From: an uncultured Candidatus Saccharibacteria bacterium
GTDB taxonomy: Bacteria; Patescibacteriota; Doudnabacteria; UBA920; 2-01-FULL-46-14
Length of the DNA: 63,639 bases
NCBI GenBank assembly: GCA_964396685.1
Contig: CAYNFS010000004.1
Coordinates: 1-63,639, forward strand
Direction: 5' to 3'
Shown one piece after another: positions 20,955-62,001 of the stretch. Below the pieces are notes generated by a model. That model was not told the DNA's origin, did not search any database, and worked only from the letters and a program-made list of their open reading frames with translations. Positions within the stretch are counted from its first letter, which is position 1. The number at the start of each line of letters is the position of its first letter. The position numbers and the translations under genes were made by a program.

Positions 20955-23129
20955 TTAACTTAAGTTTTTCTTTCTTAATAGTATAGCATTAAAAGCAACT
21001 ATTATGGTACTTAAAGACATAAAAAGCGCTGCCAGCGCCGGCTGCAGCAGAATTCCTTTGAAAGCAAGCACTCCGGCCGCCAAGGGCAACGCAACTACGT
21101 TGTACCCGGTTGCCCAGAACAGATTCTGAATCATCTTTGAATACGTCATCTCGGATAGCTTGATTATCTTCACGATGTCTCTAGGATCATTGCGCACAAG
21201 AATGATCCCGGCTGATTCAATGGCTACATTCGTCCCTGCGCCAATGGCAATGCCCAAATCTGCCTGGGTTAAAGCTGGCGCATCGTTTACCCCATCTCCC
21301 ACCATGGCCACTTTGAGTCCCCGGTTTTGCAATACTTTTACTTTGTCAGCTTTTTGCTCTGGCAATACCCTCGCAAAATATTCGTCAATCCCAAGTTCGG
21401 AAGCCACCCAAGCGGCTACCTCTTCCGAATCGCCGGTTATCATAGCAACTTCTAGGCCCATTTTTTTCAAACTGTTTATCGCCTCCCGCGACTCTTCGCG
21501 GATGATATCGGCAAGCGCAATTGCTCCGAGCAATTCTCCCTCGGCTATGACGTAGATTATAGTTTTTCCCCCTCTTAAGGTAAGAGGGGGCGAGGAGGCG
21601 TTATGTTGCGCGGCTTCTAATATCGCTTCTCCCCCAACCAAAATCTCTAAACCTTCCACGACGCCTCTTACCCCTTTCCCAGGAACCCTTTGAAAATCTT
21701 TAACTTCCAAAAGTGAGAGCCCTTGTTTTTTTGTTTCTTCAACCAATGCTTTGGCCACAAAATGTTCCGAAGGCGCATCCACCGATGCCGCCAATTGCAA
21801 AACTCTATCGTTTGTAATTTGTAATTTGGATTTCGGATTTAACATCACCTCGTCCACGCCATACTCTCCTTTAGTGAGCGTCCCTGTTTTGTCAAATAAA
21901 ACCACGCCAATCGTCCGGGCCGCTTCCAGGGCTAATCTTTGTTTGACCAGAAGTCCGTTTCGCGCCGCCATAGTCGTAGAAATAGAAGCAACCAGAGGAA
22001 CTGCCAGCCCCAAAGCGTGCGGACAGGCAATTACGAGAACTGCCACTAATCTTTCGGTGGCAAAGATTACGCCGGCCTTGGCCAAAAGCCAGGCGACAAA
22101 CGTGATGCTGCCAGTACCAAGGGCAACTAACGTCAGATAGAAAGCCGCCCGATCGGAAAGAATCTGCAGCTTTGACTTTGAAGCCTGCGCTTCCGCGACC
22201 AGCCTCATCACACCAGCCAAAAAAGTTTTCTCGCCAATTTTGGTTACTTGAATCTTGAGACTGCCGTCGCCGTTAATCGTGCCCGCTATTACTTCATTGC
22301 CGATTTGTTTTTTCACTGGCTTTGATTCTCCGGTAACCAAAGATTCATTAACTTCTGATTGGCCATCCACCACTTTCCCATCGGCCGCAATTTTCCCGCC
22401 AGGACGAACCAAAATCATGTCTCCGGTTTTAAGCTCGGCCAGCGGGACATTTCTTGTCTTCACTCCCTCTCCTTGTGAGGGGAGGGTTGGGGAAGGGTTA
22501 ATAATCAATTCCGCCGTATCCGGCAGCAATTTCGCAAGTTCTTTCAACGCTCCCTGCGCCCCTTGGACCGCCCGCATCTCCAGATAATGCCCCAAAAGCA
22601 TGATGGTAATTAACGTAGTCAATTCCCAAAACAGAGTATGGGGACTGCCACGCAAAGTTTCAAAAACGCTAAAAAGATATGCGGCGGTGATAGCAATCCC
22701 GATCAAAGTCATCATCCCCGGAAGGCGAGCTCGCAGTTCCCGCCATGCACCGGCCAAAAAAACCCATCCGCCATAGAAAAAAACAATTGAGCCAAAAATA
22801 AAAGATAAATATGGGGAACCAGAAAACACCGGTGCCTTCCAATCAAATAATTTTTGAGGCAGTTCCGAATAAAGCACCACCGGGATAGTCAAAACCAGAC
22901 TCACCCAGAATTTCCTAGCAAACATCGCCAGACTATGCCCCTCATGCTTGTCATGTCCCACTCCCTCCCTCTCCCCTTTGGGGAGAGGGGAGGGTGAGGG
23001 GATCAGGTTCATCCCGCACTCCGGGCACCGCCCCGGCTTATCCTGCTTGATTTCCGGATGCATCGGGCAGGAATAAATTGATCCTTTTTGTACTGGTGGA
23101 TGATTAAGCGTACTTTCGTTATGATTCAT
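20955..23129 (-). CDS. copB: copper-exporting P1B-type ATPase (CPH motif, CopB-like)
   Basis: YSCPMHP metal-binding domain, TGES, CPHALG, DKTGT, GDGVND. Confidence 0.9.
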   Translation of the reverse strand: MNHNESTLNHPPVQKGSIYSCPMHPEIKQDKPGRCPECGMNLIPSPSPLPKGEREGVGHDKHEGHSLAMFARKFWVSLVLTIPVVLYSELPQKLFDWKAPVFSGSPYLSFIFGSIVFFYGGWVFLAGAWRELRARLPGMMTLIGIAITAAYLFSVFETLRGSPHTLFWELTTLITIMLLGHYLEMRAVQGAQGALKELAKLLPDTAELIINPSPTLPSQGEGVKTRNVPLAELKTGDMILVRPGGKIAADGKVVDGQSEVNESLVTGESKPVKKQIGNEVIAGTINGDGSLKIQVTKIGEKTFLAGVMRLVAEAQASKSKLQILSDRAAFYLTLVALGTGSITFVAWLLAKAGVIFATERLVAVLVIACPHALGLAVPLVASISTTMAARNGLLVKQRLALEAARTIGVVLFDKTGTLTKGEYGVDEVMLNPKSKLQITNDRVLQLAASVDAPSEHFVAKALVEETKKQGLSLLEVKDFQRVPGKGVRGVVEGLEILVGGEAILEAAQHNASSPPLTLRGGKTIIYVIAEGELLGAIALADIIREESREAINSLKKMGLEVAMITGDSEEVAAWVASELGIDEYFARVLPEQKADKVKVLQNRGLKVAMVGDGVNDAPALTQADLGIAIGAGTNVAIESAGIILVRNDPRDIVKIIKLSEMTYSKMIQNLFWATGYNVVALPLAAGVLAFKGILLQPALAALFMSLSTIIVAFNAILLRKKNLS
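21568..21590. repeat. C/G-rich hairpin in frame in the Cu-ATPase
   Basis: CCCCCTCTTA-AGG-TAAGAGGGGG; encodes PPLTLRGG. Confidence 0.7.
22462..22499. repeat. C/G-rich hairpin in frame in the Cu-ATPase
   Basis: encodes NPSPTLPSQGEGV. Confidence 0.8.
22960..23001. repeat. C/G-rich hairpin in frame in the Cu-ATPase
   Basis: encodes PSPSPLPKGEREGV. Confidence 0.8.
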
Positions 23130-23294
23130 AGACGTAGTTTTTAAGGATTCGCCGCAAGACGCCAGTAACCAGTCAGCCGGCGACAACATGCACGGCGGAA
23201 GCCCTGATAATTATTAGAATCCGGCAATTTCATTCATCAAATTAAGTTTTGGCAGTTACCAAAGCGCCTATTATTGCATTTCTGACTGACTTCA

Positions 23295-30190: not shown

Positions 30191-31552
30191 ATGGCACATG
30201 AAATTAGCCTCATAGTTGACCCGCCGCAATTAGTAGCTGGCGGAAAATTCTGTGAGGTACGGCTGAAGGCAACTGTGGTGAAGAAGACCAAAAGCGGCGC
30301 AGGAGAAAAAACTGTCGCCGCCAAAGGCACTCTTCAATTCCGCAAAGACGACCAACCAATAATGGAGGGGCCAGTCGATGATAACGGAGTTTTCACTCAT
30401 CGCCTGGAAATCCCTCTCCAAAACGACCAGCAGTCAGTGCGCTTTGATGCAACTTTCCGGTCCCAAGCCGGCGAAGTTGCACACGCACCCTACCAACGCA
30501 TCACCATTCCACCCACCCATCGCGATCGCAGGGACAAAGATCGCAGGCAGGATTGGGAGAGAGTGAGCTACAAGCTCGAACTCAGACACTCTCTCAATCC
30601 GAACGGCGCTGACGAGTACACACTCACCGCAGACGTAACGCTCACTGCGCACGAGCGACGCGGCGAGAAAGACACTCGCGATGTCGCCGTCCCTGGCGCA
30701 ACCATCAAAATTTCCCTCAACGGCAAGGTAGCCAGCACCGGTATCACAGACGGCGCTGGAAAAACCCTTTTCCACTCGGTGCTCAGGGCCAGGGAGGTAG
30801 AGGAAACCTTCTTCATGGTCGCAACGGCCGAAATTGATGGTAAAACCGTTACCGCATCAAGCACCGAAACCGTGAAGGTACCGGCGAAAAGGAGAACGAA
30901 CCAAGAACACAGCTACCATAAGCTCTCCCTCCATGTAATGCGTCAACAGGCCGGCGAGAATCAGTATCGCTACCTGCTCAAAGCCACCTTCCTCAAAGTG
31001 GAGCGGAGAGGCGATGAGACGAAAGAGCATCCTGTTAGGGACACCCCTGTTGTCTTCACGGTCAACTCGCAGGAGCTCTCTTACGGCGACAAGTTGCCAA
31101 CAACCGATGCGACCGGCGAAGCTTTTCTGCAGACCGGAGTCTACGACTCGCTCGACCAGGAACAAGCGATGTATTTTCTGGCCAAGACGGTCGTGGTTGA
31201 CAAGCCGGTGGTATCGCAGACTTTTATTGACAAGCTGCCGGCCCTAGCAAAACCAGTGCCTGCAGTCGCTGCCAATCTCTGGCTCGTCTGCCGCGGCAAC
31301 GCAGCCGAAGTAACCCTCTTTGACAAAGACGGGAAACCCTGCGCCGCGCCGCTCACCATCATCCCGCACGTGACCAATGTAGCAATTCATGACAATTCTG
31401 GGAAAGAAATCACCGCCTGGCCCGTGAATGTTCCGGCCAGCGTTTCGGTGTTTTTCTTCTTCCACGAGGAGGCCAAGAGATTCTCCGCCACTTTCGCCAG
31501 CGGCGGAGCCTCAAAGACCGGGATTATCTACCCGGAGAAAAGGAGCAAGTAA
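30191..31552 (+). CDS. hypothetical protein with 3-4 tandem Ig-like beta domains
   Basis: ~110-aa beta-rich repeats each with a (T/V)D..G motif, charged linkers, no signal peptide; AAGG-type RBS. Confidence 0.7.
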   Translation: MAHEISLIVDPPQLVAGGKFCEVRLKATVVKKTKSGAGEKTVAAKGTLQFRKDDQPIMEGPVDDNGVFTHRLEIPLQNDQQSVRFDATFRSQAGEVAHAPYQRITIPPTHRDRRDKDRRQDWERVSYKLELRHSLNPNGADEYTLTADVTLTAHERRGEKDTRDVAVPGATIKISLNGKVASTGITDGAGKTLFHSVLRAREVEETFFMVATAEIDGKTVTASSTETVKVPAKRRTNQEHSYHKLSLHVMRQQAGENQYRYLLKATFLKVERRGDETKEHPVRDTPVVFTVNSQELSYGDKLPTTDATGEAFLQTGVYDSLDQEQAMYFLAKTVVVDKPVVSQTFIDKLPALAKPVPAVAANLWLVCRGNAAEVTLFDKDGKPCAAPLTIIPHVTNVAIHDNSGKEITAWPVNVPASVSVFFFFHEEAKRFSATFASGGASKTGIIYPEKRSK

Positions 31553-31553
31553 C

Positions 31554-34196
31554 ATGGCGAACGCACAAACCTCCTGGTTCCGGGAGATCCTTTCGGTGAT
31601 CCTGGGCCATCCCATTGGCCAGTTTTTGAGCAATGCGCTCAAGGATCTATTTCAAAAAGCCGGGGAACATGTGACCGAGAAGGAGATCAAGGTCATCATG
31701 ACCAAGATCTTCGGGCCGGGTACGGAGGATGAACGCCGGTTCACCCTGGCTATGAGTTTTCTTGATCCCAACGAACAAAAACGGATCTGGGAGATGCTCG
31801 GCCAGCTTGAATCGCACCAAAGTGATTACTTCCGGATCACTGTAATGCAAGAAAAACCGGAAGACATCGCCAAAGTACTGCGTGAAGTTTACGCAGTCAT
31901 GGACGATAAGGCCTGGCAAAACGCGATCCAAGTCATGAATTACGACTTGGAGCACATTCAGGACAAATGGACGAGAGTTCAGAACTGGATCGGCGCCAAC
32001 TGGCGCACTCACGTTTGGCCAGCCCTTCGCGCCTTTGGCTGGTGGCGGGCAATCGGCCTTGTCGCTCTGGTGTGGTTTCTTGACCGTACGACCCCATCGC
32101 AAATCGGCCAAGCGATTGCCACAACAGCCAAAGCGATCTGGACCCAAGTCACGGCTAGTGGTGGTGGCCTCGGCAAAGGACTGGGTTGGCTCGGAACTAA
32201 ATTCGGCGCAGGACTCAAAGCCACATTCTCCGGTCTCGGAAAGGGAATTTCGGCAACCGCCAAGGGAACAGCAGAAGCAAGCGGCTGGCTCGCTAGCATA
32301 GTGGCGTGGCTTGTCAGAAACATCCTGGCTGTGACACTGGGCCTTCTGGGTCTTGTCGCCGCTCTCGGTGTGCTTTTTCTGGCATCCCCCACATTCCGCC
32401 AGCAGGTATTCACGCTTGGCCCGTCGGTACTGGTGTGTGGTGTTATACTCACGGCAATAACCATTGCTTGGGTGACCCATCATCATTACCATGCGGGCTG
32501 GGTTGTCACCCTGCTCGGCATGTACTGGCTGATCCTACTCGGCACCCTGTGGCCCGGGTTCTTAGCGAATCTGGCCACGATCGGCTTACCCCTCTTCGCG
32601 CTCCTGGCGGCTGTTCTCCTAATCCTTTCCGGATGGATGACGACAGTTCGCTGGTGGCGCCGCATTGCCTACGCTTTGACGACTATCTTGCTCGGCGTCT
32701 TGCTCCTCCCGCCTGTTTACCGGTGGGTGGCGGGGACGAGCTTCGGGCAAATCAGCGGCCGGTATTTCAACGCCGTTGGCGGCCAGAAGTTCACCCAGTG
32801 GGTACGCGCCATCGTCCCTCGGGAGATTGATCGCGGTCTTACATTGGGTGAAGTCACCGAGGACGCCAGCCTGTACGTGCAGGAGGCCGGCAAGCTCAAG
32901 CCCAAGGTGCTTGTCGAAACTCTCGAGGTCAAAACGAAAGAGCCGATTATAATCCTTTGGGGAGTAAAGATCGGCGAAATTGAGAAGGTTGAAGAGAAGA
33001 CCATAGAGAAACGGCAGGTACTCAAGGCCGGGACGAAGGTCAAGGTCTGGCAGGCACGGCCGAACCTGGTGTTTGACGACGGCGAGAACGACGAGCCGGT
33101 CCTGAAGGTGAAAATCGCTGACGAAAGCGGCGAATTCATCACCAGCAAGGAAGAGCTCTATGTTGTCGCCCGCAAGGTTCGCCTCACAAGCCCGCTTCCT
33201 GCCAAGGCCGACATGCGGCCCACCCCGTGGTACCACCACCTCATCTATCTCTTGGCCATGATCGTCGGAATGTGGATGATCATGAACTTGCCGCCAAAGG
33301 AGAAGCTGGGACGGAGGATCACTTGGGTGGCAATGACGGTCGTCATGCTGCCAATGGCGGTCTATATGTTAATCAACATGATAGACGCCAAGGCAGCACC
33401 AATTCCAACCCGCACGACTACGGTCACCACGACCCGCATCGGCCAGCCAGTAAGCGGCGTCATCGGGCCGCCGGAGTATGTGGCTCTGGTGGACAAGTAT
33501 CTCGCCCAGTACCCGACCGTGCCGCGGAATCTGGCGCTGGCGATGATTCAGGTTGAATCTAGCTGGGATCCGCGCGCGGTCTCGCCGCGAGGGGCGCAGG
33601 GCCTCATGCAGTTGATGCCGGATACGGCTAGGCTGCTTGGGGTCAGCGACCCCTTCGACCCAGACCAGAACATCCGCGGAGGGATCCAGTACCTCGCGCA
33701 GCAGCTTGCTGATTTCTCCTCTACGGAGCTGGCGCTGGTAGCCTATCACTGGGGACCAGAGAACGTCCGGAAACACCCGGGCAAGACCTGGGAGCAAATT
33801 CTGGCAAGCTCGGACGAACCCAGACCTGGACCACTCACGATCGACTACGTCCGGGATGTAATTGCGTTGGCTCGCGGTCAAGCTCCCGGCCAACCCGGTG
33901 TGCAGATGGCCGTAACCCCCCCACCTCCTCCGCCACCCAAGGAGTTTGAGATATCCTTCGGGCTTGCGGAAGGTACCACCTACGAGACTGTGGTCGTAAC
34001 CTGCACCACGGACTCAAAGGTGGAAACGGCCGAAATGACAAAAAAACGGCCGTACTGGGGATTCAAAATCACCCCGGCCACGCGCTGTGTGGCGCAGGAT
34101 GAAGCCGGAAGGGAAATCAAGTTGGTTGACTCAAAAGGTCAATTACTTCCAACCGGATTTCAACCCAAACCCAACCTCGTGGCCTGGGTGCAATAA
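31554..34196 (+). CDS. polytopic membrane protein with C-terminal lytic transglycosylase (SLT) domain
   Basis: start MANAQ after AAGGAG; many TM helices; 'MIQVESS...AVSPRGAQGLMQLMP.TA...DP..NI.GG..YL...LALVAYHWG'. Confidence 0.85.
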   Translation: MANAQTSWFREILSVILGHPIGQFLSNALKDLFQKAGEHVTEKEIKVIMTKIFGPGTEDERRFTLAMSFLDPNEQKRIWEMLGQLESHQSDYFRITVMQEKPEDIAKVLREVYAVMDDKAWQNAIQVMNYDLEHIQDKWTRVQNWIGANWRTHVWPALRAFGWWRAIGLVALVWFLDRTTPSQIGQAIATTAKAIWTQVTASGGGLGKGLGWLGTKFGAGLKATFSGLGKGISATAKGTAEASGWLASIVAWLVRNILAVTLGLLGLVAALGVLFLASPTFRQQVFTLGPSVLVCGVILTAITIAWVTHHHYHAGWVVTLLGMYWLILLGTLWPGFLANLATIGLPLFALLAAVLLILSGWMTTVRWWRRIAYALTTILLGVLLLPPVYRWVAGTSFGQISGRYFNAVGGQKFTQWVRAIVPREIDRGLTLGEVTEDASLYVQEAGKLKPKVLVETLEVKTKEPIIILWGVKIGEIEKVEEKTIEKRQVLKAGTKVKVWQARPNLVFDDGENDEPVLKVKIADESGEFITSKEELYVVARKVRLTSPLPAKADMRPTPWYHHLIYLLAMIVGMWMIMNLPPKEKLGRRITWVAMTVVMLPMAVYMLINMIDAKAAPIPTRTTTVTTTRIGQPVSGVIGPPEYVALVDKYLAQYPTVPRNLALAMIQVESSWDPRAVSPRGAQGLMQLMPDTARLLGVSDPFDPDQNIRGGIQYLAQQLADFSSTELALVAYHWGPENVRKHPGKTWEQILASSDEPRPGPLTIDYVRDVIALARGQAPGQPGVQMAVTPPPPPPPKEFEISFGLAEGTTYETVVVTCTTDSKVETAEMTKKRPYWGFKITPATRCVAQDEAGREIKLVDSKGQLLPTGFQPKPNLVAWVQ

Positions 34197-34282: not shown

Positions 34283-34314
34283 AAAAGGCTCGGATTCTTC
34301 CGAGCCTTTTTTTT
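34283..34314 (+). terminator. intrinsic terminator
   Basis: AAAAGGCTCGGA-TTCT-TCCGAGCCTTTT followed by T-run. Confidence 0.8.
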
Positions 34315-34325: not shown

Positions 34326-34718
34326 TTATTCCTCCTCTTTGCTTAAAGAGGAGGAGGGGAGGAGTTCCTCGATTGAGTTAACAATAGCTTTATAAACACC
34401 TTCAGAATTATATAGTACATCATTATTCCAAAAACGCAAAACTTTGATGCCAAACGAGTTTAGGTACTTTGTTCTAAGGGCGTCAGATCTTTCAACTTCG
34501 TCATCACTATGATGTCCGCCATCTATTTCTATGGCAAATTTTAGCTTAGGACAATAAAAATCTAAGATAAAATTGCCGACCCCGGATTGTCTAAGGAATT
34601 TCAGATTCCCGATCTGCCTGTTTCGAACGAGATTCCAAACAATTCTTTCCGCCTTGGTTGAGTCTCTACGAAGTTGTCGCTTGAGAGGTTTCAGCTTTAA
34701 TTTATTATAGATTCTCAC
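34326..34718 (-). CDS. DUF559 (Vsr-like) endonuclease
   Basis: LRRDST.AE...W...R......KF.RQ.......DFYC......IEIDG..H...D..RT..L...G..VLRFWN. Confidence 0.9.
   Translation of the reverse strand: MRIYNKLKLKPLKRQLRRDSTKAERIVWNLVRNRQIGNLKFLRQSGVGNFILDFYCPKLKFAIEIDGGHHSDDEVERSDALRTKYLNSFGIKVLRFWNNDVLYNSEGVYKAIVNSIEELLPSSSLSKEEE
34328..34366. repeat. C/G-rich hairpin at the 3' end of DUF559
   Basis: TTCCTCCTCTTTGCTTAAAGAGGAGGAGGGGGAGGAG; encodes LLPSSSLSKEEE. Confidence 0.75.
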
Positions 34719-34730
34719 TTTTTATTCGAA

Positions 34731-34803
34731 CTCACCCTTCCCTCTCTTTGGAAAAGAGAGGGGATTCCTCTTCTTTTTCCAAAGATGAGGTGGGGAGGAG
34801 TTC
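34731..34803. repeat. C/G-rich hairpins upstream of DUF559
   Basis: CCCTCTCTTTGGAAAAGAGAGGG...TCTTCTTTTTCCAAAGATGAGGTGGGGAGGAG. Confidence 0.7.
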
Positions 34804-34820: not shown

Positions 34821-35261
34821 TCAAGCCCCAAACGAGCCGAAAATCAAAGCATTGGTAATCACCCTGACAATCACAAAAGACAGCACGACAATCACCACCC
34901 CGATAATCGCGTGGGTCAAAGTTTTTTTGGCGGCTTCGGCTTGTTCCTCATTGCCGTGAGCCGTGACATAGCGATATCCGCCGACAATCACAAACAAAAC
35001 AGCAAGAAGCCCGACAATCCAGAGGGCGATTTGGATAAGCCCAATGATGAGACTGGTGGCCGTGCTGGCCCCGGCCGGCGCGCAAGGCCCGATCACAATC
35101 CCAAGCAAAGTGATACATGCTCCAAACTGGATGTTGCGCGGCACCGGCACCGGCTCTGTGGGATTGATTCCAATTTGCGCTAAAGCATTAAAAAAAGGCA
35201 AAATCGAAAGAGAAAGCACTAGTATCCAAAAAGCAATTTTTTTAAATCTTTTTCGAAACAT
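34821..35261 (-). CDS. TrbC/VirB2-like (T4SS_pilin) pilin 7
   Basis: GGYRYVTAHGNEEQAEAAKKTLTHAIIG flanked by TM helices. Confidence 0.85.
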   Translation of the reverse strand: MFRKRFKKIAFWILVLSLSILPFFNALAQIGINPTEPVPVPRNIQFGACITLLGIVIGPCAPAGASTATSLIIGLIQIALWIVGLLAVLFVIVGGYRYVTAHGNEEQAEAAKKTLTHAIIGVVIVVLSFVIVRVITNALIFGSFGA

Positions 35262-35270
35262 ACATAAAAA

Positions 35271-35702
35271 TCAGAAAGGCGATCCAAAAATTAAGATATT
35301 GGTGATAATCCTGATCATGGTAAAAGCCAGCACGACGACGATCAAACCGACGATGGCATTTGTGAGGGTCTTCTTGGCGGCCTCGGTTGCTTCCTCGTTG
35401 CCGCGGGCGGTGAGATACCGCAGTCCTCCCCACATCAGGAAAAGCACGGCCAGGGACCCCACTACCATAAGCGCAACATCCAAAATTATGACAATCGTAT
35501 CGCCAAAAGTTCCCCTGCTCGCAATGCCCTCATCTGCAGTATCAAACAGACAAGGAACCTTTACCAGTCCTTGCCCGCCAATTCTGCAAAAATTCTGCCC
35601 AAACGCAGCAACTGGCGCAAAAACCAAAAACAAACACAAAATGCTTAATCCCAGACTTTTTAATTTTTCGCTTTTCGCTTTTCGCTTTTCGCTTTGCGTC
35701 AT
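35271..35702 (-). CDS. TrbC/VirB2-like pilin 6
   Basis: GGLRYLTARGNEEATEAAKKTLTNAIVG. Confidence 0.85.
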   Translation of the reverse strand: MTQSEKRKAKSEKLKSLGLSILCLFLVFAPVAAFGQNFCRIGGQGLVKVPCLFDTADEGIASRGTFGDTIVIILDVALMVVGSLAVLFLMWGGLRYLTARGNEEATEAAKKTLTNAIVGLIVVVLAFTMIRIITNILIFGSPF

Positions 35703-36106
35703 ATCCCCGTTCCCGGCACTCCCTTAAGAAGCACCGCCGCAATAATGGTCACAATCGCATAAGCCATTACGATAATCACCAGCCCCCAGATGGAGCTGGT
35801 GATGGTTTTTTTGGCGGCTTCGGTCGCTTCTTCATTGCCTCTTGCGATTACATATTTGTAGCCGCCCCACATCAGGAAAATCACGGCAACGCTCGCGGCC
35901 ACAATCAGCAAGATCTGAATAATGACGGTAATGAGCTTCCCCAGATCTGTTGCTTGGGTAGGCGAATTAGGATCGCCACCAAAAATTCCCTTAAGATCTT
36001 GAAAAAGCTTGCTGTCAATCCCCGCCCCATAAGTTAATATGGGAACGAGCAGGAAAACTAGCCCGCCCAAAACCAAAAAAAACCAAAATTTTCCTTTTTG
36101 TCTCAT
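35699..36106 (-). CDS. TrbC/VirB2-like pilin 5
   Basis: GGYKYVIARGNEEATEAAKKTITSSIWG. Confidence 0.85.
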   Translation of the reverse strand: MRQKGKFWFFLVLGGLVFLLVPILTYGAGIDSKLFQDLKGIFGGDPNSPTQATDLGKLITVIIQILLIVAASVAVIFLMWGGYKYVIARGNEEATEAAKKTITSSIWGLVIIVMAYAIVTIIAAVLLKGVPGTGI

Positions 36107-36127
36107 TATTAGCCTGACTGCTCTGTC

Positions 36128-36502
36128 TTAAACGTTCTGGGAGATCAAAGCGTTGGCAATGACCCGGACTATGACAAAGGCCAAGATGATGATGACGATA
36201 CCGATAATCGCGTTGGTAATAGTCTTTTTGGCCGATTCTGCAGTTTCTTCATTGCCTCCGGCCGTAATATAGCGAAACCCGCCGACAATAAGGAATATAA
36301 CAGCAACAAGGCCGGCAATAGCCAGCAGAATTTCAACAATGCGGATAATGATTTCGGTCGCGGTATTTACACTTCCTACCGGATCCGAAGGATCGCTCGG
36401 GTTGCGAAACTGCGCTCCCGCCACAAGCGGCAGTACCAGCACCGCAAGAAGCAAAAAGATCGATACAATATTGGCTGTTTTAATGGGATTTATGTTTCTC
36501 AT
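36128..36502 (-). CDS. TrbC/VirB2-like pilin 4
   Basis: GGFRYITAGGNEETAESAKKTITNAIIG. Confidence 0.88.
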   Translation of the reverse strand: MRNINPIKTANIVSIFLLLAVLVLPLVAGAQFRNPSDPSDPVGSVNTATEIIIRIVEILLAIAGLVAVIFLIVGGFRYITAGGNEETAESAKKTITNAIIGIVIIILAFVIVRVIANALISQNV

Positions 36503-36685
36503 TTGTAATTATGCGATCCGAATGATACTAATTTTCATCCGAATGTTCCGAATATATTAGGATAATTCAGATGTCATTCGTATATTAGAATCGCTGTTTT
36601 TTAAGGAATAACTCTCGACCTCGAGTTATTTTTAATTATCAACAATACTTGCATATTATAGCATATTCCAAAAAATAATGCCAGC

Positions 36686-37306
36686 TTACGGCCCCGTGCG
36701 GACACAATCACCCACGGTAAGCCCGCCAGGGTTCTGACAAGCGCAGCCCCCCGTCCGAGTCCGCCTGCATAAAAGCCCGGTATTGCATTCCGAATCGCCG
36801 GTACAAGTGGAGCCTGCGACTCCGCCGCCACCACCTCCTCCCGAAGGATTGCTCGAACCCCCACTCCCTCCTCCTGTGGCGGGGGCGGGGGCAGTTGTCA
36901 AAATGGTATTCACAATCGCCACGATGGCAAAAGCCAAAACAATCACCACAATGCCGACTACCGCGTAAGTGATGGTTTTTTTGGCCTTTTCCGTGGCCTC
37001 TTCATTGCCTCTTGAGGCCACATACTGAAAGCCTCCGACAATCAAAAAGAGCACCGCAATCCCGCCGGCGGCGTATAAAAGCCACGTAATGAAATGCCTA
37101 AGAAGCGCTCCAAAATCCGTGAAGTTAACCAATTGGCCGGGGGCGGGGTTTCCTAATACACATTTGTTTGGCGAAATCTCACATTGACCAGCAGGGCAGC
37201 TCCCTTGGATGCACGGCCTTTCCTCTTGAGCATTTACTAGCAAAGGAGGACTAAACAAGATCAAGAAACCTAAAACCAAAAGTATTTTATAATTTTGTTT
37301 CTTCAT
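36686..37306 (-). CDS. TrbC/VirB2-like pilin 3 with Cys-rich N- and C-terminal extensions
   Basis: start MKKQNY; GGFQYVASRGNEEATEKAKKTITYAVVG; Gly/Ser linker, then a 6-Cys domain. Confidence 0.85.
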   Translation of the reverse strand: MKKQNYKILLVLGFLILFSPPLLVNAQEERPCIQGSCPAGQCEISPNKCVLGNPAPGQLVNFTDFGALLRHFITWLLYAAGGIAVLFLIVGGFQYVASRGNEEATEKAKKTITYAVVGIVVIVLAFAIVAIVNTILTTAPAPATGGGSGGSSNPSGGGGGGGVAGSTCTGDSECNTGLLCRRTRTGGCACQNPGGLTVGDCVRTGP

Positions 37307-37308
37307 TT

Positions 37309-37902
37309 TTAGGACGGCGGAGGAGAAAGTAAGATAGTGCGAATCAAATTGATTATAGTAAAAGCCAGAATTGTTACAATGAATCCGGCAATCGCCCATT
37401 TCAGCCCCTTTTTGGCGCTTTCCACCGCTTCTTCATTCCCGGCTGATGTAATGTACTTATAACCATAATATATTATCATCAAAATTGCGGCAAATCCCAA
37501 TATCCCCAGAAAATTCCGCATGACAAAATACATCACACTTACAAAACTGCCGGGTTCAGTCGGGCCGGTAATCGGATTTTGAATTTTATCAGCGCCCGGA
37601 GGGCTGGGGGTGAAGCCCAAAAACTTGGCTGTGGCCGCAATTAAAGTAAAAGACAAAAGCGAAACTATAAATCCGCCCACGGCCCAAGTCAGACTCTTCC
37701 TGGCGCTTTCTATGGCCTCTTCATTCGTGGCCAAAATCATTTTGACTCCCGAAAAAACCGTAAATGCAATGGCGATAGCCGCAATGATCGCCGCAAATCC
37801 CTGAAAAGCTCTGACCACGAGCTCCCCCGGCGTGCTCACCCCCAGCCAAGCTAAGGGATTAAATAATTCCACTGTTTGCGCTAAAAAAATAAATTTAATC
37901 AT
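37309..37902 (-). CDS. double-domain TrbC/VirB2-like pilin 2
   Basis: two motifs: ATNEEAIESARKSLTWAVGG and TSAGNEEAVESAKKGLKWAIAG. Confidence 0.85.
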   Translation of the reverse strand: MIKFIFLAQTVELFNPLAWLGVSTPGELVVRAFQGFAAIIAAIAIAFTVFSGVKMILATNEEAIESARKSLTWAVGGFIVSLLSFTLIAATAKFLGFTPSPPGADKIQNPITGPTEPGSFVSVMYFVMRNFLGILGFAAILMIIYYGYKYITSAGNEEAVESAKKGLKWAIAGFIVTILAFTIINLIRTILLSPPPS

Positions 37903-38351
37903 TGATTTATCGGATTTGAAGGATTAAAGGGGCAATCGGTTGCGCCCGGATTGTAAATGCATTGAATATCGTACCACTTACGTTCCATTTTCTCGCCTTT
38001 GCCAAAAATACCGTTGACCAGCAAATTTACGAAAACAAAAGCCAGAACGATTATGCCGAAGCCGACAATGGCGTTGGAGAGGCCCTTCCTGGCTTTTTCG
38101 ATTTTTTCGGCATTGCCGACTGAAGTAATCAGGTTAAAACCGGCCAGCAGAATGTAGTACATCGCCACAATCGCCGCGACCGTGATAAGATAATTGATGA
38201 CGCGGGTGATAAGAATAATCAAGTGCTTGAGTTGGCACGGTTCAGGGTATTCGGAAGAGCCGCACGGGACTAGGCTGAAAGCGTGGACTGAGAGAGGAGC
38301 AAATGTAACCGCCAAAGTTATGAGCGATAATATTATAATTTTTTTCTGCAC
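37899..38351 (-). CDS. TrbC/VirB2-like pilin 1
   Basis: LVPCG...PC...; AGFNLITSVGNAEKIEKARKGLSNAIVG. Confidence 0.85.
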   Translation of the reverse strand: MQKKIIILSLITLAVTFAPLSVHAFSLVPCGSSEYPEPCQLKHLIILITRVINYLITVAAIVAMYYILLAGFNLITSVGNAEKIEKARKGLSNAIVGFGIIVLAFVFVNLLVNGIFGKGEKMERKWYDIQCIYNPGATDCPFNPSNPINQ

Positions 38352-38460
38352 AACTTTTGAATTTCTAATTGCTCTAATTTCTAATTCCTAAACGATGTCT
38401 AATGACCAACTGGTCATTTGGAATTGGGACTTGATTAAGTTATTAGGTCAATTAGGTTAA

Positions 38461-39753
38461 TTAGAAATTTCTTAATAAGAGATTCATCTTCTGGCTCGCG
38501 GCGGAGACGGCTTCTTCGGGGGCAATGTTTCGCAGGATAACGTCGTCAATCATCTGCACAAAAATCGCGTCCACCGCGTTGCTGTCCGGCTTATAAACGC
38601 TTTTGGCCGAGAGCGCCGCTTCGGCAAACACGCCGATGTCGGGATCAGAAAGCTGTTGTTCTATGATGTCAATTCTCGGGGAAGCCTGCTTCTGCGTTTC
38701 GTAATACTTGGGAAGGGTTTCTTTGCTGCTGATGAATTTCAAAAACTGCCAGGCCGCCTCCTGATTTAAGCTTTGTTTGGAGACCCCCTCTGCCCAATAA
38801 TTGGCAAAATTAACCCGGTTGCCTAAAGGATCAATTTGCGGCGCCGGGGCAATCCCGTAATTTAAGAAAGGCGCTTTGTCGGCAAGGGTGGGGCGCAGAT
38901 AAGAATAGGAAAAAATCATGGCGACCTGGCCGGCGGTAAAGGCTTCTATGGAGTTGTTGGAACGGGCGTTCCAGGTGTAGGTGACCTTGGCGGGATTGGC
39001 GAATTGGGTATAAAACTCAAGAGCGGTGGAAGCGGGATTGAAAGGGACACCCTGCTCGTCCCGCAGGGTTTGGCCCAAAAGCGAGACTCGGGAGTCGGGA
39101 GAATAAAAAGTCGTCCCGTTCTGCAGCATCAAAAGTTCCAAAATATCCGGCGCGCGATTGACATTGTTAGAAGTGCCCATGGCCACGCTGCTTCTTTGGA
39201 AATTTCCAAGATTGTCTTGTCTGGTGATTTTGCGCGTTTGCGAGACCAGCTCCTCCCAAGCGGCGGGCGGGCGGGGGATGCCGCTTGAGGCCAAAATATC
39301 GCGATTGTAATAGAGGGCCAAAACGTCCACTGCCAAAGGCACGGCATAGACCAGCTCGTCCGCCACCAAATCAGAGCTTGCCACCTGTATAAAATTATCC
39401 TTGAATTCCCGCAAGCTCATAACATTGGCCGGGGCCGGAGCTAATTTGCTTTTGTGTTTGGGAAGCCAATCGTTGTGAATTGAGAAAATGTCAGGGCCGC
39501 TGCCAGAGGCCAAAGCGTCAAGAAGCTCATCCTCGTAAGTCTCGATATTTTTCTTGACGTAAGTGATGCGGATATTCGGAAACTTTTTTTGAAATTCCGC
39601 AATCAAAGGCTGGACAACTGCCAGCTCGTCAAACGGCTTCCACCATTTAAGCTCGATCTGGGGACCGCGCTGGCGCCCGCCGCCCAAGATATTGCAGGAC
39701 TGGGCCGTGAAGATTATCGCAAGGAGAAGAATTAGGAATCTTTTTTGTTTCAT
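38461..39753 (-). CDS. ABC transporter sugar-binding-like lipoprotein
   Basis: lipobox AQSC; GPDIFSIHNDW, VPLAVDVLALYYNRD, F..G.VAM. Confidence 0.85.
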   Translation of the reverse strand: MKQKRFLILLLAIIFTAQSCNILGGGRQRGPQIELKWWKPFDELAVVQPLIAEFQKKFPNIRITYVKKNIETYEDELLDALASGSGPDIFSIHNDWLPKHKSKLAPAPANVMSLREFKDNFIQVASSDLVADELVYAVPLAVDVLALYYNRDILASSGIPRPPAAWEELVSQTRKITRQDNLGNFQRSSVAMGTSNNVNRAPDILELLMLQNGTTFYSPDSRVSLLGQTLRDEQGVPFNPASTALEFYTQFANPAKVTYTWNARSNNSIEAFTAGQVAMIFSYSYLRPTLADKAPFLNYGIAPAPQIDPLGNRVNFANYWAEGVSKQSLNQEAAWQFLKFISSKETLPKYYETQKQASPRIDIIEQQLSDPDIGVFAEAALSAKSVYKPDSNAVDAIFVQMIDDVILRNIAPEEAVSAASQKMNLLLRNF

Positions 39754-42180: not shown

Positions 42181-42225
42181 CCCCCTCTTCGTCTCCCCCT
42201 TAGCAAGGGGGAGAATAAGTGGGGG
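42181..42225. repeat. C/G-rich hairpin repeat, intergenic
   Basis: CCCCCTCTTCGTCTCCCCCTTAGCAAGGGGGAGAATAAGTGGGGG. Confidence 0.8.
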
Positions 42226-42639
42226 TTATTTTGCATTTTGATTTTTGAATTTTGCATTTAGCGCCAGCGCTGCTATTCCTGCCATTATCCCGATATCCGC
42301 CAAATTTACCGTGCTAATCCCGATATCAATGAAGTCTACCACCTTGCCGTCCCAAAGTCTATCAAAAATGTTTGCCGCAGCGCCCCCGATAATTAGGCCC
42401 AAAGCGGCTGGGGAATAATCCAGAGAAAAATACTTAAAATAAAAAAATAAAAACGCGACAGACAAAACTACTGCCACGGCCGAATTAAAAAATCCCGGCA
42501 GGTTGATTCCAAACGGGAGACCGGGATTTTGAACGATGGAATTTGTAAAAAAATCAATGCGGAGCGCCAGAAGCTTTGTCAGGAGGTCGGCTAAAAAAAT
42601 AAAAATTACTACCAGCCAAAACTTATTTACTTTCGTCAT
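42226..42639 (-). CDS. lspA: lipoprotein signal peptidase
   Basis: D..TK, N.G..FG, GGAAANIFDR...V.DF, N.AD. Confidence 0.88.
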   Translation of the reverse strand: MTKVNKFWLVVIFIFLADLLTKLLALRIDFFTNSIVQNPGLPFGINLPGFFNSAVAVVLSVAFLFFYFKYFSLDYSPAALGLIIGGAAANIFDRLWDGKVVDFIDIGISTVNLADIGIMAGIAALALNAKFKNQNAK

Positions 42640-43524: not shown

Positions 43525-45906
43525 TCAATCAAGCTCGCCTGTGGATAACACAAAATCAGGAACCTCTTGCAGGTATTTTATAAAAACTTGGTCATACTCG
43601 GTCAAGACGCGGGGATCCAAAATATAAATACTCTTGGACTCAACGCTTCCGGCTAAAAATCTGGCAAGCAAAGTATGGAAGATATGCACGGTACGGGGTA
43701 GGACGTAGTCAATAAATGAGGTCTTAACCCCCGGGGCCTCAAAAGGCAAACGCCAAATGACAAGGTTTCGGGCTTCAGGATAATGTTTGAAATGCCGCAA
43801 CGTCTCGTTTGTCGAAAGCAAAAGCGTGAAATCGCTGTCGACATTCTTTAACCTGCGGCTAGTGATAATTCTGTTGTTTGGCGAAGGATTCCTCCGCAAG
43901 ATGTCAGAAACCTCTGAAAGCTTTGCTTTCGATGGTAAAATCACGATTGTGCTGCCTGGCAGTGTAGACAAAAGCTTTTGAAATCCCTCTGTGGTAAAAT
44001 TTTTACTGAAAATTTTCACGGCAATTTTTTGGAACGGAACTCCAACGTTGACCTGCTCAAATCGAAAACTGGAAATTCCCAAAATCTTGTCAAAGTAACT
44101 TATTGAGGACTGAGGCAGTTGGGTATCAATGATTGTCGTGCTCGCAAATTTCTTTATAAACTCCTGCCAAACTTTTTCCAGCTTTTTTGGCATGGCGTTC
44201 AACGCCACAAACTTGGAACCAAACCGCAGCCAGTAATATTTATCGGGCTGGCCTTCCAAAAAAATCTCGTAAATTAAATTTTTGAGCGAAACAATCTTGT
44301 GGCGCAGGGCCCCTTCTTCCAGTGCTGACTCTGCGTTCAAAAAATCTTCCTGCCCTAGCAGATATTCCGCGAATGTCTCAAGCTTGCTTATTAATTTTTG
44401 CGCCGGATGAAATAATTTCTGGAAACGCTCCTGTTCTTTTTCTGTATCATCAACTACCAAACTTTCGGCAAATTCTCCTTGGCTTTTCAAATACACAAGA
44501 TGCAAAATTCCAAAAAACAAGTCAAGCTCATTGGCAACTCTTTCCGCTTCCTGCGGAAAACGCGCGTAAACGATTTCTATGGCGTTTCTGATTTTTCGCA
44601 AATCCCAACTTTCAGTCAAAGTCTCTGCCAGGCCGTCCTCAATTTTGGCGAGATCAAAAAGCAGTACCGGAAATTCAGAAAAACCAACTTGCCAATCGGA
44701 AACAAGCGTAAACAAAGATGACAATGTTAAAAAATAGGTCTGTTTTTTGTTAAATTCCAAAGACTGGAAATAAATGCAATGGTGACGGGAACAAATTTGA
44801 GGATCGACTCGTAGTAAATGCAAAAAAGCCCTTTCTTCATAAGCCCATTTGATTTGCGATAAATCCGTTGATCCTGGCTCAAATTCCCGAAGAATCGCCA
44901 GTTTTATAAGGATTTTCCAAATCTCATCCTGCTGTTTCTCTGCTCCTTTGATCCTCTCATAACGGACTGCGCAGAGGGCGTTCTTTGGATCAACAACTTG
45001 CTGATTTTGGGGAACAAGATCAAGGTCAGTCGGATGAGATACTCCCACAATTTTCGGACCGTTCTGCAAGGCCAAAAACGCCAGCAACTCCTGGTGTTTG
45101 CTGAAAGACAAAGGCAAGGTCATTATCGTTTTGTCCGGCCAAATGTTTGATAAAGAGTTGAACAACTCCTCCCCTCTTTCCGCCAGAGGCGGATCCGCCT
45201 TCGGCGGAAAGGTAAGAGAGGGTGGGGGTGAGTAATGAACATCCCCTCTCTTTCTCCCCCGGACTCCGGAGGAGATTGAAGCGGGGGCGGACAAATCCAA
45301 AATCAAATCCCTAAACTTCAAATTTGATTTCACAAGATACTCTCTAATCTCCTTCTGCAATTCTAAATCGAAACTCAAAAACTCATTTAGAATCCCGGCC
45401 AGCACTAAACCGGAATTTTTGGCATCAGTCAACGCGCGGTGCGATAGGCCTTCTTCTATCCCGAATTCTTCCGCCAAATACTCCAATGAATGAGCCGGCA
45501 GAAGAGGCAAAAAAGTCAGAGCCAGCTCCAGGGTGTCGACGTGTTGATTTTTTAAAACTAGCCCTTGATTTTTAAGATATTCGAGATCAAACAAAATATT
45601 TTGACCGAGTATGCTCTCGTTTCCGAAAAACTTCTGCAAATCTGTTTTGACATCTTTCCAAACAGGCGCAGTCTTTAATTCCTCCAGAGCAATCCCCGTC
45701 AGACTTAAAGCCGAAGCTGACGGCTCAATTTCGGGATTGACAAGCGAACTGAAAGACTTGCCAAAATGGACTTTGATCTTTTTTTCTTTCTGATCAAAAC
45801 TTAATTCAGCTTCAACTGCCCCCGCTTCCATAATCCGCCCCTCTTTCATATCAAGATGCGTGGTTTCAAGATCAAGGGCGATGAATTTTTTGGAATAACT
45901 CGACAT
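43525..45906 (-). CDS. DEDDh 3'-5' exonuclease fused to a degenerate DinG-like domain
   Basis: LDLETT, GQNILFDL, HRALTDA; C-terminal 'RLPF...LD.R'; no intact Walker A seen. Confidence 0.8.
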   Translation of the reverse strand: MSSYSKKFIALDLETTHLDMKEGRIMEAGAVEAELSFDQKEKKIKVHFGKSFSSLVNPEIEPSASALSLTGIALEELKTAPVWKDVKTDLQKFFGNESILGQNILFDLEYLKNQGLVLKNQHVDTLELALTFLPLLPAHSLEYLAEEFGIEEGLSHRALTDAKNSGLVLAGILNEFLSFDLELQKEIREYLVKSNLKFRDLILDLSAPASISSGVRGRKRGDVHYSPPPSLTFPPKADPPLAERGEELFNSLSNIWPDKTIMTLPLSFSKHQELLAFLALQNGPKIVGVSHPTDLDLVPQNQQVVDPKNALCAVRYERIKGAEKQQDEIWKILIKLAILREFEPGSTDLSQIKWAYEERAFLHLLRVDPQICSRHHCIYFQSLEFNKKQTYFLTLSSLFTLVSDWQVGFSEFPVLLFDLAKIEDGLAETLTESWDLRKIRNAIEIVYARFPQEAERVANELDLFFGILHLVYLKSQGEFAESLVVDDTEKEQERFQKLFHPAQKLISKLETFAEYLLGQEDFLNAESALEEGALRHKIVSLKNLIYEIFLEGQPDKYYWLRFGSKFVALNAMPKKLEKVWQEFIKKFASTTIIDTQLPQSSISYFDKILGISSFRFEQVNVGVPFQKIAVKIFSKNFTTEGFQKLLSTLPGSTIVILPSKAKLSEVSDILRRNPSPNNRIITSRRLKNVDSDFTLLLSTNETLRHFKHYPEARNLVIWRLPFEAPGVKTSFIDYVLPRTVHIFHTLLARFLAGSVESKSIYILDPRVLTEYDQVFIKYLQEVPDFVLSTGELD
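45165..45274. repeat. nested palindromic elements in frame in the exonuclease-DinG gene
   Basis: TCCGCCAGAGGCGGATCCGCCTTCGGCGGA (45179-45208) sits in the loop of a C/G-rich hairpin. Confidence 0.85.
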
Positions 45907-60318: not shown

Positions 60319-60405
60319 CGGTGGGGGTGGGATTTGAACCCACGGTACTCTTGCGAGCACACCTGATTTCGAGTCAGGCCGATTAAACCACTCTCGCACC
60401 CCACC
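60319..60405 (-). tRNA. tRNA-Ser(CGA)
   Basis: cloverleaf with long variable arm; anticodon arm CCTGA-CT CGA AA-TCAGG; CCA not encoded. Confidence 0.95.
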
Positions 60406-61573: not shown

Positions 61574-61647
<74 letters not shown>

Positions 61648-61653
61648 TTTTAT

Positions 61654-61725
61654 GCCCCCGTAGTTCAATGGACAGAACAAGAGACTCCTAAGCTCTGGAT
61701 GGCCGTTCGATTCGGCCCGGGGGTA
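61654..61725 (+). tRNA. tRNA-Arg(CCT)
   Basis: acceptor GCCCCCG/CGGGGGT; loop CT CCT AA; TTCGATT T-loop. Confidence 0.9.
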
Positions 61726-61728
61726 AAA

Positions 61729-61766
61729 CGGGGATTGGCGCGCGGTAGCGCGTTTATCCTGCCCCG
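61729..61766 (+). pseudogene. internally deleted tRNA-Pro-like remnant
   Basis: CGGGG...GGCGC..GGTAGCGCG...ATCCTG-CCCCG; anticodon arm and T-loop missing. Confidence 0.55.
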
Positions 61767-61819
61767 TTAGATATTATTGCGCTGGAATGTTGCTATTATA
61801 TAGTGTCTTTCGTTTTAGT

Positions 61820-61865
61820 CGGGGTATTGTAGTATACCGGCAGTACGCGCGTTCATCCCGCACGA
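61820..61865 (+). pseudogene. internally deleted tRNA-Pro-like remnant
   Basis: shares TAGTATACCGG.AGTACGC.CG with the tRNA-Pro at 61894. Confidence 0.6.
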
Positions 61866-61893
61866 ATTTCAAAATGATTCATACCATGCTTCC

Positions 61894-61964: not shown

Positions 61965-62001
61965 TTGACAATCAAATAGAACATTGCTAAAAGAAAATAA
62001 T

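Follow-up and report, generated by a model that had tools for sequence, protein, structure and literature searches.

DUF559 nuclease genes bracketed by triplex-motif repeats recur across bacterial phyla and look like an undescribed selfish element

Introduction

A nuclease gene of the DUF559 family, bracketed by hairpins of the BoxC/PIT/intrastrand triplex motif (TM) class, forms a cassette that recurs across many bacterial phyla and looks like an undescribed selfish element. The cassette is described here from contig CAYNFS010000004.1 (assembly GCA_964396685.1) of an uncultured Candidatus Saccharibacteria bacterium, a stretch of 63,639 nt that is referred to as the window and to whose full length all its coordinates refer. 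The analysis establishes a conserved and general architecture, inverted-repeat ends, gain/loss polymorphism, host genes that contain the cassette in frame, and a nuclease kept under purifying selection. The best explanation, held with moderate confidence, is that the window carries one copy of a widespread cassette: a motif-flanked, Vsr-like nuclease with homing-like spread, which may cut or move the repeats. The remaining hairpins of the window are copies of this motif class that lack a gene and stand singly or in pairs.

DUF559 is a large family whose function is unknown. BoxC, PIT and triplex-motif repeats have been known since the 1990s; they are present in hundreds of genomes, where they mark unstable loci. 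No enzyme or mechanism had been tied to TM repeats, as stated by the main survey (Holder et al. 2015, PMC4666352). The cassette would give these orphan repeats a candidate enzyme and DUF559 a candidate substrate. With it, a Vsr-like nuclease would join the small number of protein types that maintain dispersed palindromic repeats, of which the tyrosine transposases (RAYTs) associated with REP (repetitive extragenic palindromic) sequences are the main example so far. Of the 25 papers in open-access PubMed Central and bioRxiv that name DUF559, none connects it with BoxC, PIT or triplex repeats; a mention in the non-open literature is possible.

Architecture of the cassette

Eighty DUF559 loci from species-representative genomes (673 kb in total) were compared. 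They represent Patescibacteria, Chloroflexota, Alpha-, Beta- and Gammaproteobacteria, Cyanobacteria/Melainabacteria, Thermodesulfovibrionales, Deinococcus, Omnitrophota and others. Hairpins were defined as stems of at least 8 pairs with at most one mismatch; those with a 5′ arm of at least 88% pyrimidine are termed PyPu, and those of opposite polarity PuPy. The loci contain 244 PyPu hairpins against 13 PuPy. Relative to a conserved codon, PyPu density is about 5 per kb just 5′ of the start and about 7 per kb at the 3′ end, and 0.10 per kb more than 1 kb away. The association of DUF559 with hairpins that a first-pass annotation had proposed from the window is thus real and general, with 50–70 times enrichment at both ends of the gene. 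Among the 65 loci with complete flanks, 49 have an upstream hairpin, 53 a 3′ hairpin and 42 both. The window itself holds nine PyPu hairpins where 1.4 are expected (maximum 4 in 30 Markov simulations), and one PuPy hairpin where 1.6 are expected. The motifs are low-complexity runs of C/T and G/A, as a chance artefact would produce; that explanation is refuted by the excess in the window, by the positional enrichment in 80 independent loci and by control loci (see below) that are almost free of PyPu hairpins.

Each TM unit is 30–40 nt long. It comprises a hairpin of pyrimidine arm, short loop and complementary purine arm, a second loop of about 3 nt (exactly 3 nt in 30 of 34), and a G-rich third strand, T, which is a mirror repeat of the purine arm. 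G stands opposite G in T, and A or T opposite A. The other strand shows T as a C-rich head, H. With at most one mismatch allowed, a third strand lies on the expected side of 34 of 59 proximal upstream hairpins and 36 of 64 proximal 3′ hairpins (2 of the 36 have it on both sides). Orientation is regular. On the gene strand, T follows the start-side hairpin in 34 loci and H precedes it in six, whereas H precedes the 3′-end hairpin in 34 loci and T follows it in eight. The layout of the cassette is therefore [hairpin-T], 0–16 nt, open reading frame (ORF), [H-hairpin]. Outer hairpins, where present, are oriented opposite to the inner one, which makes a doublet of each flank; the upstream side of the window gene is an example.

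The two flanking copies are inverted repeats in the strict sense: in 21 loci their asymmetric loops are reverse complements and in three direct, where chance would give about three of each. Left and right ends of one locus have an identity of 0.77, those of different loci 0.64 (p ≤ 5e-4). The hairpin-to-hairpin span is 385–570 bp, mostly near 440 bp. The ends also overlap the translation signals, which makes the cassette extremely compact. In most loci the start codon lies 0–16 nt past T, which is thus Shine–Dalgarno-like, and the ORF reaches into the 3′ motif or passes through it in 40 of 54 loci, with the TAA of the second loop as its stop in eight. The left motif has a second role as ribosome-binding region; the C-terminal tail usually, and the stop often, comes from the right motif. 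Homologues of the window protein very often have C-terminal tails of the type ELLPTSSLVKEEG, ITPPNLPLA, TPPDLPLPQGEE or PNPLPQAGEGV.

Long composite direct repeats (motif–spacer–motif, 100–130 nt) occur on both sides of the gene at loci L010, L018 and L033. The downstream repeat of L018 continues into the start of a second DUF559-like ORF and resembles tandem cassettes.

The window locus

The features of the window are collected in table 1. On the 3′ side of the gene, TCCTCCTCTTT-GCTT-AAAGAGGAGGA (34330–34355) forms a perfect 11-bp stem and is followed by GGGGAGGAGTT (34356–34366). On the gene strand, 34330–34366 gives the last 13 DUF559 codons, ELLPSSSLSKEEE plus stop; folded as DNA, the motif reaches −12.1 kcal/mol (z = −4.2 against shuffles). 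The tail ELLP.SSL.KEE of the protein is common to close homologues. The 5′ side reads, in plus-strand order, AACTCACCC (34729–34737), a hairpin with a perfect 10-bp stem (34740–34762), a hairpin with a 10-bp stem and one mismatch (34767–34790) and GGGGAGGAGTT (34792–34802). This block folds at −22.0 kcal/mol (z = −4.3), and the orientation of the proximal hairpin fits the family rule, hairpin-T beside the start codon. In the mirror test for the third strand, GGGTGAGTT matches reversed AAAGAGAGGG at 9 of 9 positions and GAGGAGTT scores 8 of 8. Sequence, scan and fold thus bear out the first-pass annotation, which had placed hairpins on both sides of the gene and let the 3′ one encode the C-terminus.

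Table 1. Coordinates of the DUF559 gene, its flanking motifs and the solo motif copies in the window.
Feature	Position	Strand	Remarks
DUF559/EDxHD Vsr-like nuclease ORF (predicted)	34326–34718	minus	130 aa, GTG start, TAA stop; Pfam, alignment, PDB, AlphaFold2/Foldseek
Canonical bidirectional intrinsic terminator AAAA-GGCTCGGA-TTCT-TCCGAGCC-T8	34283–34314		between SLT gene and DUF559 stop; read from sequence, not listed by scan
Right-end triplex motif, AACTCCTCCCC (head H) + hairpin TCCTCCTCTTT/AAAGAGGAGGA	34330–34366	minus	supplies last 12 codons; scan, fold
Third strand T of left-end motif, GGGTGAGTT on gene strand	34729–34737	minus	purine-arm mirror repeat; 10 nt before GTG; Shine–Dalgarno-like
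Proximal left-end hairpin CCCTCTCTTT/AAAGAGAGGG	34740–34762	minus	with 34729–34737, hairpin + G-rich third strand on gene strand
Outer upstream motif, opposite orientation, AACTCCTCCCC + hairpin CCTCATCTTT/AAAGAAGAGG	34767–34802	minus	doublet with proximal motif
Solo full element (head–hairpin–tail nested palindrome)	4687–4737	plus	intergenic, 10 nt upstream of efp; z = −2.6
Solo motif (hairpin + tail) in P-type ATPase, SSPPLTLRGG	21568–21602	plus	in frame; no net insertion against CopA structures
Solo motif in P-type ATPase, NPSPTLPSQGEGV	22462–22499	plus	in frame; about 10 aa net insertion against CopA structures
Solo full motif in P-type ATPase, PSPSPLPKGEREGVG	22960–23003	plus	in frame; about 9 aa inserted in linker against CopA structures
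Solo full element (nested palindrome)	42181–42227	plus	intergenic, 25 nt upstream of Mg-chelatase-like (ComM-type) gene; z = −6.3
Composite motif in RNase T-domain gene (43525–45906, minus), SPPPSLTFPPKADPPLAERGEE	45165–45233	minus	in frame; z = −3.5

The six further copies that had been listed (at 4686, 21568, 22462, 22960, 42181 and 45165) all exist; that at 45165 has a second GC-rich hairpin nested in its loop and falls outside the strict hairpin definition. The copies at 21568, 22462 and 22960 all lie in frame within one CopA-like P-type ATPase gene (20955–23189, minus). Their reading as protein insertions, compared with CopA structures, stands for the latter two and falls for the first (table 1).

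The G-rich end of the 4687–4737 motif has the same spacing to the efp start as the left-end motif has to that of DUF559, a hint that solo motifs can provide or hide a ribosome-binding site. This spacing, the position of the G-rich third strand before the start codon in most loci, and a 3′-end hairpin of the kind typical of mRNA stabilizers would all suit a reading of the hairpins as cis-acting expression signals of a small host gene (upstream insulator or terminator, ribosome-binding site, mRNA-stabilizing 3′ hairpin), with the scattered copies as unrelated look-alikes. That reading is very unlikely. A canonical terminator stands beside the DUF559 stop, so the triplex-motif hairpins are not the host's terminators, and the motif is unneeded for termination. 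No U-tract follows the hairpins, the solo copies have the same three-part motif, and the strong excess of PyPu over PuPy is unexpected for generic RNA hairpins. The same motif, moreover, flanks the domain inside MetH, PriA and MetRS, where such signals would be useless.

The nuclease

By alignment and structural model, the window gene encodes an intact Vsr-like/EDxHD nuclease whose activity is predicted. The ORF matches Pfam DUF559 (PF04480) with E = 3.6e-33 and 114.1 bits (cut-off 20.6); its other domain matches are solely to related restriction-endonuclease-like (PD-(D/E)XK-type) families, and PHROGs homing-endonuclease families match it likewise. A putative catalytic set of E24, D53, E64, D66, H70 and D79 is intact and is invariant in a 35-sequence alignment. 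These residues are the counterparts of the EDxHD set (Glu, Asp, His, Asp) (PMC3239194). The nearest solved structures by sequence profile are 3HRL (E = 7e-37) and 3R3P, the catalytic domain of I-Bth0305I (E = 8.4e-5). The AlphaFold2 model has a mean confidence (pLDDT) of 87.8 overall, and 57 in the motif-encoded tail (residues 121–130), which the model shows as disordered. Compared by Foldseek, the model has a Vsr-like alpha/beta fold, with TM-scores of 0.82 to 3HRL, 0.81 to 3R3P and 0.47 to 1VSR. The protein is a nuclease core only, 130 aa with an N-terminus of about 40 helical residues. Some 23,600 clusters at 50% identity match it at E ≤ 0.001. Within the window, low-stringency tblastn gave only noise and no further or decayed DUF559 copy.

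The repeat class and Escherichia coli

The hairpins belong, as judged from their letters, to the BoxC/PIT/TM class, and triplex formation is predicted for the window copies. Perfect 10–11-bp stems with the order pyrimidine arm, loop, purine arm are found at 34330–34355, at 34740–34762 and in solo copies, and the third strand is present in the window and in related loci. The class is best described in E. coli, where the TMECO consensus is CCCTCNCCC-N3-6-GGGNGAGGG-N3-GGGNGAGGG. Strain K-12 has 23 TM copies, five in inverted pairs, and TM occurs in more than 260 genomes; copies are strongly polymorphic between E. coli strains. Triplex formation was seen in vitro for E. coli oligonucleotides by circular dichroism and nuclear magnetic resonance, and the motifs stop polymerases in vitro. 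Holder et al. reported the motifs to be free of nearby mobility genes and the mechanism to be unclear (all PMC4666352, which also cites earlier work on the motif by Bergler, and by Hoyne and Maher).

The repeats studied here share with BoxC, PIT and TMECO the three-part motif, the second loop of about 3 nt (TTA or CCG) and the G-rich mirror third strand. They share also solo and inverted-pair copies, presence in many phyla and polymorphism between strains. The window stems are CTCTTT/AAAGAG-rich, more A/T-rich variants that depart from the TMECO consensus, and so are of the same class, not the same sequence family; several proteobacterial DUF559 loci, such as L004, L014 and L032, match the consensus. 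Two further differences concern context. The motif pair here brackets a nuclease gene, whereas Holder et al. reported no associated gene, and the window copies are more diverse, with several inside coding sequence, whereas TMECO copies were reported as always intergenic.

The DUF559 gene ycjD of E. coli ends in a degenerate H-hairpin (…RRSPSP plus stop) and has no left motif. Downstream of it come the remnant of a second DUF559 and then TMECO #9. The remnant, at 11240–11430 of the K-12 locus L081, is a decayed DUF559 3′ end (…METVLENIRQGLNRPSHRHERVRG…) and suggests a former tandem or replaced cassette. The fabI–ycjD region breaks beside TMECO #9 through the eef island, and because of that island the break is uninformative for DUF559. 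Four of the five K-12 motif pairs read hairpin-T, 16–27 nt, H-hairpin: a cassette without the gene. In an E. coli alignment, the hrpB–mrcB site has a pair in K-12, a single bare hairpin in an O111 strain and nothing in SCU-112.

Embedding in host genes

DUF559 is in frame with a long host ORF in 24 of the 80 loci, and the in-frame protein insertions that had been suspected from the window are accordingly common. Nine such ORFs were analysed with Pfam. DUF559 stands between domains of MetH, PriA, MetRS (twice), HsdM and ThiC, and of two restriction–modification (RM) enzymes (one Eco57I/MmeI-like, one type ISP); in L016 it is the sole family detected. Motif-encoded peptides always lie on both sides of it. 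Pfam found host domains and DUF559 only in the nine ORFs, with no Hint or splicing domain. Since the repeat-encoded linkers stand at inter-domain boundaries and no Hint domain is seen, the mature protein presumably still contains the insert. A fair proportion of the 150 best representatives in a whole-library search are likewise long proteins with an internal DUF559. The embedded forms document an intein-like, non-splicing route that makes a nuclease domain, together with its repeat-encoded linkers, a lasting and selected part of essential enzymes.

RM genes host in-frame DUF559 at L004, L066, L014 and L016 (Eco57I/MmeI-like, type ISP, HsdM and, by eye, a type III-like helicase at L016), and one DUF559 homologue is labelled 'DNA-cytosine methyltransferase' by a source. 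In-frame insertions may be biased towards such genes.

Orthologous sites can be compared in MetH, at the linker between the pterin-binding and B12-cap domains. For MetH of Anaerolineales, among the 120 closest proteins, 64 linkers are filled, six are TM-only (a doublet or single motif of 23–31 aa) and 50 are empty. The DNA of four alleles shows how these states relate. L146 is empty; L145 has H-hairpin…hairpin-T; L147 lacks the first motif; L020 has H-hairpin, hairpin-T, DUF559, H-hairpin, hairpin-T. The outer boundaries are identical in the doublet-only and filled forms. On a tree of the host sequence only, the states interleave, with at least 14 changes, and the closest filled/empty pair is 3.3% apart. 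Distances of host and insert are weakly correlated (r = 0.34), with discordant examples in both directions (insert 9% and host 17%; insert 44% and host 12%), so different DUF559 lineages entered, or were exchanged at, the same MetH site. The comparison of empty and filled sites that had been suggested is thereby answered in relatives, where empty, repeat-only and filled alleles coexist.

In the empty allele L146 the linker (2195–2235) is a 7-nt tandem repeat (TCAACGT TAAACGT TCAACGT TCAAC), and other empty alleles carry unrelated expansions such as ETSEVSKTSEV. The MetH linker is thus generally unstable and permissive.

The nuclease embedded in MetH is under strong purifying selection. Its ratio of nonsynonymous to synonymous change (dN/dS) is about 0.05 at dS above 1, against 0.075–0.12 for MetH. 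Constraint as strong as that of the host protein would suit a guardian or domesticated enzyme: motif structures would stall replication, and DUF559 would be kept to nick or resolve them, adjoining the motifs by co-selection rather than by mobilizing them. Stable triplexes and polymerase stops in vitro (PMC4666352) speak for such a role, as does descent of the fold from a mismatch- or structure-sensing nickase. The explanation is nevertheless quite unlikely. It does not account for the inverted motifs around the gene, for the interleaving of filled, TM-only and empty states in hosts that are nearly identical, or for the presence of distinct DUF559 lineages at one site; many motif-bearing loci, besides, have no DUF559 nearby.

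Mobility and genome-level association

The nearest homologues of the window protein (62–65% identity, same tail) lie in four unrelated contexts, packed tightly among housekeeping genes: between SLT and pilin genes, between AspRS and YbaK, between ClpB and a SPOUT methyltransferase, and downstream of an SH3 gene. At the level of the genome, the far flanks of DUF559 loci contain 50 solo PyPu hairpins in 507 kb, and the window is similar. Control loci (n = 53, collected through an unrelated protein, without DUF559) contain two in 191 kb, both from one duplicated locus. The proposed correlation between DUF559 and repeat copy number is thus seen as a difference of about 9-fold (binomial p of about 1e-5, no PuPy excess), which is crude, the controls being taxonomically unmatched.

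Empty alleles are found at the MetH linker of relatives; none was found at the window's own locus, for which the Logan contigs of four groundwater runs give only the filled form. A metagenome scan with the neighbouring SLT protein returned no close relatives (best 57% identical). Other contigs of the groundwater metagenomes X1–X4 carry a 35-nt motif (window 34728–34762, head plus hairpin) with one to three mismatches. One 35-nt unitig with this motif is at 40x against 26x for the window's contig, so the motif is multi-copy in the groundwater community.

Proposed mechanism

A mechanism of homing-like spread can be proposed as follows. (i) The nuclease would recognize the motif, either as sequence or as extruded hairpin or triplex. 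(ii) It would cut at or near the motif. (iii) Repair of the break would copy the cassette from a motif-flanked donor, as in homing. (iv) The cassette would thereby spread into existing motif doublets. (v) Recombination between the flanking motifs would shed the gene, leaving solo motifs or doublets. Insertions are tolerated within genes, because the motifs are stop-free in two of three frames and encode flexible P/S/L…G/E/R linkers. A bolder proposal, offered only tentatively, is that TM/DUF559 is a new class of autonomous selfish element, whose sole protein recognizes the non-B DNA (hairpin or intramolecular triplex) of its own ends and which is copied into doublets by break-induced repair. 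If so, essential proteins such as MetH, MetRS and PriA would repeatedly acquire in-frame domains and linkers from the cassette.

Several observations weigh against homing-like spread by the nuclease. The action of DUF559 on the motifs is inferred. Target-site duplication is absent, with no excess of flanking direct repeats in 32 simple loci; together with the absence of a strand-transfer domain, this leaves no account of how the cassette would insert de novo where no motif exists. In a minority of loci the topology is reversed or no motif is detectable. K-12 keeps 23 near-identical motifs, yet the flanks of ycjD, the sole DUF559 gene examined there, have decayed, which weakens a simple picture of one enzyme spreading all copies. 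At hrpB–mrcB, the one E. coli motif pair sampled, no gene-bearing allele was found among the sampled strains. Purifying selection on embedded copies fits a host-beneficial role equally to a selfish one. The empty allele missing at the window's own locus and the crudeness of the control comparison belong here too.

Some of the same evidence would suit an explanation in which the motifs spread or arise otherwise, through another enzyme, slippage or non-B recombination, and DUF559 is a passenger trapped between copies, with an unrelated function such as repair or defence. E. coli maintains its homogeneous motifs without a motif-flanked DUF559 at ycjD, no mobility genes were reported near them (PMC4666352), and large defence proteins (Hhe, ProA, DpdF) have DUF559-like domains at their ends. 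Trapping of this kind is unlikely in view of the cassette itself: across phyla, the ORF in most loci overlaps both motifs, as ribosome-binding region and as C-terminus or stop; the rule of orientation is strict, as is the reverse complementarity of the loops; the size is uniform at about 440 bp; and different DUF559 lineages occur at the same MetH site. Homing-like spread of a motif-flanked nuclease remains the preferred reading.

Relation to known systems

The analogy with REP/RAYT pairs drawn in the first-pass annotation holds for function and fails for the components. As in REP/REPIN–RAYT systems (PMC3116915, PMC2817692), a single-copy-type gene stands between inverted palindromic repeats that are also dispersed as singlets and doublets; doublets lie upstream of the window gene and at the MetH site. 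An enzyme with non-autonomous repeats is proposed in both, with long-term vertical persistence. RAYT, however, is an HUH Y1 transposase, whereas DUF559 is predicted to be a Vsr-like/EDxHD hydrolytic nuclease; the window gene has no HUH Y1 (IS200/IS605-like) domain among its matches, which are DUF559 and PD-(D/E)XK-type only. REPs have GTAG/CGTC heads, whereas the present repeats are of the triplex type (BoxC/PIT/TM), and REPINs are extragenic, whereas the present elements are often in frame within genes.

The EDxHD prototype, I-Bth0305I, is a Vsr-like nuclease whose dimer works at a pseudopalindromic site (PMC3239194). Its catalytic domain is homologous to that of the window protein, with conserved E, D, H and D, and both are selfish-type nuclease genes that sit within or between conserved genes and occupy one site repeatedly; for DUF559, presence/absence and recurrent invasion are seen at the MetH linker of relatives, not at the window locus. 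I-Bth0305I resides in a group I intron and has N-terminal NUMOD and helix–turn–helix modules. DUF559, by contrast, has no intron or intein, an N-terminus of about 40 helical residues and its own terminal inverted repeats: the Rfam scan of the window showed no intron, Pfam showed no Hint domain in the embedded forms, and the 130-aa protein is the nuclease core only. Inteins with homing endonucleases likewise place a nuclease domain in the reading frame of essential genes (MetH, PriA, MetRS) and come and go repeatedly at a single site; the embedded DUF559 forms differ in having no Hint or splicing domain detectable by Pfam and in the repeat-encoded linkers that flank the insert.

Rickettsia palindromic elements, reportedly described by Ogata and colleagues in Science in 2000, are said to lie in frame in protein-coding genes without destroying them. 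They are not known to be associated with an enzyme gene. They resemble the present motifs as short in-frame palindromic repeats and differ in sequence family; here, in addition, a whole nuclease domain can insert along with the repeats.

Insertion sequences and MITEs (miniature transposable elements with inverted repeats) share the terminal inverted repeats (loops 21 against 3, identity 0.77 against 0.64). Target-site duplication was not seen in the 32 simple loci, nor a DDE, HUH, serine or tyrosine transposase among the domains of the window gene. Classical transposition with target duplication was rejected, as its signal is missing from the flanks. Site-specific integration, in which a circle of gene and motif would duplicate a bare hairpin as direct repeats, was rejected on the loop polarity. 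A plasmid-borne trait is not indicated: 30 of 72,556 plasmid records have a homologue, and most are chromids. For membership in a defence system, PADLOC and NCBIfam gave weak domain-level matches only, to nuclease modules of large defence proteins. Vsr-type recognition of a T:G mismatch in the hairpin was also set aside; the mismatches are of mixed types and follow no consistent pattern. A known RNA family was not found for the motifs, since the Rfam gathering scan of the whole window returned tRNAs only.

Neighbouring genes and further features of the window

The window has the appearance of a Patescibacteria (CPR) genome. The DUF559 cassette lies exactly between an SLT-domain protein gene (31428–34196, plus) and a minus-strand array of paralogous type IV secretion system (T4SS) pilin genes. 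The SLT lytic transglycosylase-domain protein is a 922-aa membrane protein; the array (34821–38351) comprises about eight small T4SS-pilin (PF18895) genes. No promoter-like site was found upstream of DUF559, which therefore probably shares a transcript with the pilin genes. Six tRNA genes (Ala, Arg, Pro, Phe, Gly, Leu) are clustered at 61574–62327, and a tRNA-Ser gene lies at 60319–60405.

A second family of GC-rich hairpins is represented at 2415–2473 and 6132–6168 (GCCCCCGCGCAGGCGGGGGC and GGATCCCCGCTTTCGCGGGGATGAC/GTCATTCCCGCGAAAGCGGGAATCC). The first copy is an in-frame stretch of about 20 aa within the GTPase gene ychF (1784–2872, plus). The second is enclosed by a MITE-like unit of about 165 nt (6072–6237) with 35-nt terminal inverted repeats (6087–6121 and 6203–6237). 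A 26-nt perfect reverse-complement match to the left end of this unit is present at 38445–38470.

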